DNA from: Parcubacteria bacterium C7867-001
GTDB taxonomy: Bacteria; Patescibacteriota; Minisyncoccia; Phycocordibacterales; Phycocordibacteraceae
Reading direction: 5' to 3'
Length of the DNA stretch: 53,018 nucleotides
Assembly: GCA_001189095.1 (NCBI GenBank)
Contig: LFCK01000003.1
Coordinates: forward strand, 1-53,018
The stretch's first letter is position 1. Each line of letters starts with the position of its first letter. The translations under genes and the position numbers were made by a program. The notes beneath the pieces are model-generated. The model worked only from the letters and a program-made list of their open reading frames with translations, ran no database searches and was not told the origin of the DNA. Below, in pieces: positions 52,056 to 53,018 of this stretch.

Positions 52056-53018
52056 TGATCCACGAGCAGCTTCCGCTACCCGTGCCTTGTTACGACTTAC
52101 TCCCTGTCATTGAATTTACCGTAGTCCTGCTAAATGCAGAATATCGGGTACCTCCAACTTCCTTGAGTTGACGGGCGGTGAGTACAAGACTCGAGAACGT
52201 ATTCACCGTGGTATGGCTGACCCACGATTACTAGTAATTCCAGCTTCAAGAGGTCGGTTGCAGACCTCTATCCGTACTGAGGACGGTTTTTGGGATTTGC
52301 TCCACCTTGCGGTCTTGCATCCTTCTGTACCGACCATTGTATCACGTGTGCAGCCCAGGGCATCAGAGGGACATGCTGATTTGGCGTCATCCCCACCTTC
52401 CTCCCCCGTGAGGGGGCAGTCTCGCCTGACAATTAACAGACAACGGGGGTTGCGTTCGTTACCCCACTGAAGGGAACAGCAGGCTCCCAACGTTTCTGCT
52501 GGGATGCAGCTGCATTTCTAGCCCTGGTAAGGTTCTTCGCTTATCGACGAATTAAGCCACATGATCCACTACTTGTGCGAGTCCCCGTCTATTCCTTTGA
52601 GTTTTAAGCTTGCGCTCGTACTACCCAGGCGGCTCGCTTACCGCGTTAGCTTAGTCCCGCAGAGGGTCGATACTCCGCAGAACGAGCGAGCAGCGTTTAG
52701 GGCCAGGACTACCGGGGTATCTAATCCCGTTCGCTACCCTGGCTTTCGTGTGTGAGCGTCAGAAACAGGCCAGTGCGCTGCCTTCGCCTTTGGTGTTCCC
52801 CACGATATCAACGGATTTCACCCCTACACCGTGAGTTCCACGCACCTCTCCCAACCTCAAGTCATACCGTTTCTCTTGCGAGCCGTAGGTTGAGCCCACG
52901 GATTTGACAAAAGACTAATATGACCGCCTTGACACCCTTTACGCCCAGTGATTCCGGATAATGCTTGGGGCCTCTGTATTACCGCTCCTGCTGGCACAGA
53001 GTTAGGAGCCCCTTATTC
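52056..53018 (-). rRNA. rrs: 16S rRNA, partial (about E. coli positions 500 to helix 45; the 5' part lies beyond the window end); the mature 3' end may extend to ~51860
   Basis: The minus strand contains GTGCCAGCAGGAGCGGTAAT (515 region), GGATTAGATACCC (806 region), CACAAGTAGTGGATCATGTGGCTTAATTCG, GGAAGGTGGGGATGACG, TGAATACGTTC, CACCGCCCGTC, AAGTCGTAACAAGG and the helix-45 stem-loop CACGGGTAGC-GGAA-GCTGCTCGTG, then GGATCA. Confidence 0.9.

Follow-up and report, generated by a model that had tools for sequence, protein, structure and literature searches.

The 50-nt gap in the 16S rRNA gene of the Parcubacteria bacterium C7867-001 draft genome is probably an assembly or curation artefact

Introduction

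Does the 16S rRNA gene of Parcubacteria bacterium C7867-001 really lack a part of the head domain of the small ribosomal subunit, or is this part missing from the assembled sequence only? The question is raised by the end of contig LFCK01000003.1, of which 53,018 nt were analysed here (the window). The window is contig C4 of a five-contig, 812-kb (0.81 Mb) assembly with an estimated completeness of 98.7%. A sequence-only reading had described a universally conserved segment of the gene, spanning helices h33 to h37, as replaced by a shorter and non-canonical sequence, and had offered three options for it: a real reduction of the head domain, a lineage-specific rearrangement or a local assembly error.

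The 5' strand of h34 holds universally conserved nucleotides of the decoding site and of the tetracycline and spectinomycin sites. Published accounts assign C1054 and h34 to the A site and give them a role in antibiotic binding and, to our knowledge, the nucleotides lost from the window contact the A-site codon and the release factors in every other known ribosome. Reductions of the 16S rRNA, named 16Gap1-5, have been described in bacteria of the candidate phyla radiation (Tsurumaki et al., 2022; PMC9297842), and that work locates them in h6, h10, h17, the tip of h44 and one further region (16Gap4).

Results

The 16S rRNA gene and its setting

At its end the window carries, on the minus strand (52048-53018; 971 nt), a partial 16S rRNA gene, which cmscan assigned to the bacterial SSU rRNA family RF00177 at model positions 484-1533 with a score of 824.5 bits (E 4.8e-260; gathering threshold 50). 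The match extends to model position 1533 and the conserved 3' motif GTCGTAACAAGG is present. The gene is not full-length, as its 5' third (model positions 1-483) lies beyond the end of contig C4 and is missing because the contig ends there. The 23S rRNA gene was found at the start of contig C2, where it is likewise cut by the contig end, and contig breaks fall inside both rRNA genes (16S on C4, 23S on C2). A covariance-model search of the five contigs with RF00177 yielded no other 16S sequence beyond the C4 locus, and this locus was also the only one matched by blastn (word size 11) with the full-length 16S genes of two relatives as queries.

The 16S gene of the window is followed by no 23S gene, and the location of the latter on a different contig suggests that the rRNA genes are unlinked. 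Downstream of the 16S gene and on the same strand, a perfect G+C-rich hairpin (51808-51832) is succeeded by an A+T-rich stretch with a TATAAT-like box, by an ORF of 109 aa (51418-51747, minus strand) with a Dabb stress-responsive A/B-barrel domain (E 6.9e-8) and then by a tRNA gene (50748-50820, minus strand; RF00005, 76 bits). Two further ORFs, of 100 aa (52168-52470, plus strand) and 95 aa (52203-52490, minus strand), lie wholly within the 16S gene; both are almost certainly spurious and unfit for protein annotation.

A single gap of 50 nt

Between the landmarks CCTTACC and AACGAACGCAACCC the window has 65 nt (52525 down to 52461 in the rRNA sense, minus strand), exactly at the coordinates given by the sequence-only reading. 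For comparison, 41 genomes were searched, namely that of the window, those of 24 congeners and those of 16 other members of the order, and a 16S match was obtained in 24 of them. The same landmarks span 114-117 nt in all the 20 relatives' genomes caught by a regular expression, and therefore the short interval is real and specific to one assembly. In three other genomes (G034, G032 and G035) the landmarks are altered and the 5' strand of h34 is present.

The nature of the shortening proved to be simpler than a replacement of h33 to h37 by a non-canonical sequence. Alignment with MAFFT of the window and 21 sequences of relatives showed a single contiguous gap of 50 columns after position 52481, the rest being collinear; the remaining gaps of the window in this alignment comprise only 5, 2 and 2 columns. 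The deletion junction is located at 52480/52481 (minus strand), where, in the rRNA sense, GAGCCT is directly followed by GCTGTTCCC and 50 nt are absent. Over the RF00177 segment 874-1520 the window scored 436.6 bits, versus 548.8 and 539.8 bits for two relatives (G020 and G033, respectively). The gap was placed on RF00177 through the database contig L035, which is intact and in which all the helices were recovered by Infernal. Mapped in this way, it corresponds to model positions 1019-1070, which we take to be approximately E. coli positions 1029-1080 by an offset of about +10, a range that includes the A-site-facing nucleotides of h34 near C1054.

h33 loses its 3' half to the gap, that is, the loop end and the 3' strand of its second inner hairpin together with the 3' strand of the outer stem. 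Also inside the gap are the whole 5' strand of h34 and, at model positions 1058-1070, the 5' strands of both h35 and h36 together with the h36 loop, so that most of h36 is lost. On the upstream side, the stretch 52481-52525 (minus strand) is identical to L035 and, according to the Infernal structure line on that contig, retains the h33 closing strand after CCTTACC and the 5' half of h33, with its outer 5' strand, the complete first inner hairpin and the 5' strand of the second one. On the downstream side, 52461-52480 (minus strand) contains the 3 nt of the h36 3' strand and the complete h37, over which Infernal gave the top posterior symbol (an asterisk) and whose sequence is the same in relatives. 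Thus neither h37, which had been taken as lost, nor the 5' half of h33 is missing. The h37 stem appears in a form of the lineage's own, flipped and compensated, that is common to all the relatives examined. It is true that the motif GUUGGGUUAAGUCCCGC cannot be recognised in the window, as previously noted; since the relatives share this h37 form, however, the cause is a lineage-wide substitution pattern lying outside the anomaly.

Two strands are left partnerless by the gap. One is the 3' strand of h35 (AACGAACGC; 52452-52460, minus strand), whose pairs are non-canonical or absent in the window and formed in L035. The other is the 3' strand of h34 (GACGCCAAATCAGCATG; 52372-52388, minus strand), which carries an AA that in relatives pairs with a TT of the 5' strand; the sequence-only reading had correctly reported this strand as present, and the 3' end of the gene is present as well. 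By its own terms, that reading would fall if a covariance-model alignment recovered h34 to h37 normally. In the window this holds for h37, but not for h34, h35 and h36, the pairs of h34 and h35 being flagged as broken by Infernal; in L035, h33 to h37 were recovered normally, with the h34 and h35 pairs formed.

The alignments with the relatives and with L035 revealed neither a repeat of assembler-k size nor microhomology at the two breakpoints. The tetramer GCTG, which occurs twice in the intact sequence, was considered as a cause of slippage or collapse and rejected, as it predicts a deletion of 42 nt and not of 50.

Apart from the gap, the loop of a short hairpin in the h39 region (52430-52434) varies in length among close relatives, being in the window 2 nt shorter than in L035 and 5 columns shorter than in most of the genus. 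Contigs derived from public sequencing runs (Logan) carry 1-nt insertions at this same loop, and the variation is ordinary heterogeneity of a variable loop.

Comparison with relatives

The site of the gap is intact in all 29 related sequences, comprising 23 genomes of the genus or the order and six database contigs that share the h33 hairpin of the window. A lineage-specific rearrangement is consequently excluded. The six contigs (five from metagenomes and one from a genome) were obtained with a 26-nt pattern from the hypervariable h33 hairpin of the window, and all six continue canonically. In turn, a 24-nt pattern spanning the junction gave no match in either metagenome_contigs or genome_contigs, collections that possibly do not include the window's own records.

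One of these six contigs, L035, carries exactly the 50 nt absent from the window. Upstream of the junction both sequences differ by one mismatch over about 240 nt, and downstream only by the 2-nt loop indel over about 150 nt. Further toward the 3' end L035 diverges, and it bears an insertion near model position 1390; it therefore comes from a close relative and not from the same strain. Among genomes, the nearest one (G003) shows 93% identity. The h33 hairpin is also shared by a contig labelled "uncultured Candidatus Saccharibacteria" (L038), with about 80% identity over 930 nt including the gap. This record and the small genome suggest a bacterium of the candidate phyla radiation with a probable relationship to Saccharibacteria. 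Relatives of the same genus with a 16S match mostly have one locus per genome, a figure that counts matches and not gene copies.

Constraint and covariation

The proposal that the gene is not generally decayed was borne out. At the 863 columns invariant in the other 13 sequences of the same genus the window has four private changes, within a range of 0-11 among the 14 sequences, and it has none at the 858 columns that do not vary among 20 sequences of the order. An excess of substitutions at invariant positions, as a mark of a pseudogene, was thus not found over these genus- and order-invariant columns.

Covariation in h34 concerns two neighbouring base pairs, which occur in four combinations (TC/GA in 14 sequences, CC/GG in five, TT/AA in four and CT/AG in two), the dinucleotides being complementary in all the 25 sequences in which both strands were caught; four further sequences fall outside these 25, as the pattern for the 3' strand of h34 did not match them. 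The orphan 3' strand of the window keeps AA, whose partner TT is found in the 5' strand of L035 and of two genomes of relatives (G003 and G015). This retained state and the lack of decay make the sequence resemble an intact gene minus 50 bases, which would have been removed very recently or only in silico.

Read-derived contigs

Read-derived data were examined as Logan contigs, mostly of about 75-200 nt. The groundwater metagenome run X1, with 0.70 of the sampled words, is the probable source run. One of its contigs matches the unique flank with no mismatches and stops at 52088 (depth about 11), and two pieces within the gene are perfect (52205-52316 and 52773-52949). Another X1 contig matches the window up to 52480 and then continues with 19 nt of canonical h34/h35 sequence. 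From the opposite side, one X1 record (record 5) reaches 52481 from canonical h33/h34 sequence; it has 14 mismatches in 142 nt and hence comes from a relative. Likewise, four contigs of the RNA run X4 match up to 52480 and continue canonically. The X1 and X4 contigs that are canonical beyond 52480 therefore indicate that intact molecules of the group are found in those samples. For the exact strain, 52480/52481 is bridged in neither the deleted nor the intact form among the short Logan contigs listed. The data set X2 (0.83 Mb), which is labelled as a single organism, matches the flank with no mismatches up to 52118 and reaches no further into the 16S gene, and the RNA runs X3 and X4 contain huge numbers of related 16S contigs, none of them strain-specific at the junction. 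In X1, the 106 aligned contigs fall into identity bands of 29, 34 and 43 contigs, many close relatives sharing the conserved stretch. The coexistence in one sample of many close relatives with a common conserved stretch is the situation in which rRNA genes get misassembled.

Other features of the 16S rRNA in this group

Several further characteristics of the gene were noted. At the 3' end (52048-52075) the window terminates in GTGGATCATATCCAATCGG, and relatives have GTGGAACATATCC or similar sequences in place of the canonical anti-Shine-Dalgarno motif CCTCC. The GTGGAACATATCC type occurs in 18 of the 19 loci of the genus or the order in which the 3' motif was found, an observation that covers L004-L020, L024, L025, L033, L034 and L037; the canonical GGATCACCTCCTT is found in L036, a contig that is more distantly related. 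Judging by these 3' ends, the whole group may initiate translation without classical Shine-Dalgarno pairing. At the 515F primer site (52985-53003), the window and most of the genus have GGAGCGG and several other families of the order GCAGCGG, the usual sequence being GCCGCGG, and standard 515F primers would be expected to mismatch the group.

Three genomes (loci L016 of G006, L017 of G016 and L020 of G017) and L035 carry an insertion immediately behind CTTGTACTCA, at about model position 1390; it is probably intron-like, similar insertions having been described in this radiation. The 16S gene of G006 and that of G017 end about 1 kb further downstream, behind the insertion; G016 diverges at the same site, and the stretch of it that was examined did not yield the 3' motif. 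Apparent internal deletions of 88-106 nt in these three genomes were rejected as such, the sequences having been cut at the borders of the Infernal matches. Other insertions were observed at position 736 of the G003 gene (1032 nt in G002 and 613 nt in G027) and, in several relatives, at G003 positions 75 and 1104.

Discussion

The gap at 52480/52481 is best explained as an artefact of assembly or of consensus building and curation, a reading to which we assign a probability of about 0.7. Four observations favour it: the gap is unique, the gene is not decayed, the strands that pair with the missing ones are retained, and both rRNA genes are interrupted by contig breaks. Of the three options initially offered, the local assembly error is thus the best-supported. 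The metagenome assembly, or its curation, would have skipped 50 bases locally, within a gene common to many co-occurring relatives that assemblers resolve badly. The usual 16S errors in metagenome-assembled genomes are chimeras between strains or truncations. The window resembles misassembled 16S genes of short-read metagenome-assembled genomes in the position of the gene at the end of a contig, the truncation of both rRNA genes, the co-occurrence of many relatives and the restriction of the anomaly to one assembly. It differs from them in that its flanks belong to one lineage and the internal skip is clean, with no repeat at the breakpoints. A chimera of two organisms was ruled out, as both flanks of the junction match L035 best. 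In addition, since the breakpoints present neither repeat nor microhomology, a simple collapse of the de Bruijn graph does not explain the gap, and an artefact would need either reads chained into a chimeric path or two contig ends joined during scaffolding or curation. Judged from the alignments, these repeat-free breakpoints are the main argument against an artefact.

That same blunt junction, lacking any repeat of the type that misleads assemblers, would suit a real and recent deletion of 50 nt in a non-working rrs copy of some or all of the cells, with an intact copy, present as a second operon or as the majority allele, having escaped assembly. A further rrs copy could hide in the gaps, because the contigs break inside both rRNA genes, and the missing 5' third of the 16S gene must in any case lie in unassembled sequence, because the assembly contains no other 16S piece. 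Bacterial rRNA pseudogenes and degraded extra rrs copies share with the window an internal deletion expected to inactivate the RNA; unlike them, the window shows no excess of substitutions, and its assembly contains no second intact copy. Constraint is not relaxed elsewhere in the 971 nt and the co-varying state of h34 is kept, which would require a very recent event. Moreover, the junction is absent from the other public records searched (two collections), and most relatives of the same genus have one 16S locus per genome, counted as matches and not as copy number. We consider a deletion of this kind rather unlikely, and an artefact remains the preferred reading.

The gene could also be thought to function as assembled, in a free-living or episymbiotic bacterium whose 30S head dispenses with the 5' strand of h34, h35 and h36. 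It is the sole rrs sequence of a genome estimated as 98.7% complete, and smaller ribosomes, with some rRNA helices lost, are reported for the bacteria of the radiation (PMC9297842). The window shares with those cases the broad group of organisms and a 16S rRNA shorter than that of E. coli, of which the short h39 region, present in the window and in all the relatives examined, is an example. However, the losses described there are of whole surface stem-loops or their tips, with none in h33-h36, and extend over lineages (PMC9297842), whereas the present gap takes single strands of h33-h36 in one assembly. None of the 29 related sequences has the gap; the region is kept in all of them, one being almost identical in its flanks. 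Neither is a whole stem-loop removed, since h33, h34 and h35 each lose one strand while the partner strands are unchanged, and compensating changes elsewhere in the gene are absent. A single-copy 16S rRNA devoid of one strand of each of these helices should be non-functional and unable to support life. As only one assembly shows the loss and the three helices lose one strand with their partners intact and co-varying, a real reduction of the head domain is very unlikely and close to refuted. Were it both real and functional, it would overturn the view of h34 as indispensable for decoding. Still more improbable, and scarcely credible, is an rRNA in pieces, of the sort found in some organelles, with the lacking segment encoded at another locus: nothing beyond the gap itself speaks for it, the blastn and RF00177 searches of the assembled sequence of the five contigs gave the C4 locus only, and no relative examined is so organised.

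The interpretation of the gap as an artefact has practical consequences. Until it is repaired from reads, the 16S sequence of the window is unfit as a reference, for the design of primers and probes and for structure-based alignment. More generally, when a universal motif appears to be missing from a metagenome-assembled rRNA gene at a contig end, relatives should be compared before a biological reading is given. For the organism itself, the gap is most likely no biological feature and is confined to one draft assembly; its real 16S rRNA would carry the 50 bases, as the near-identical contig L035 does.
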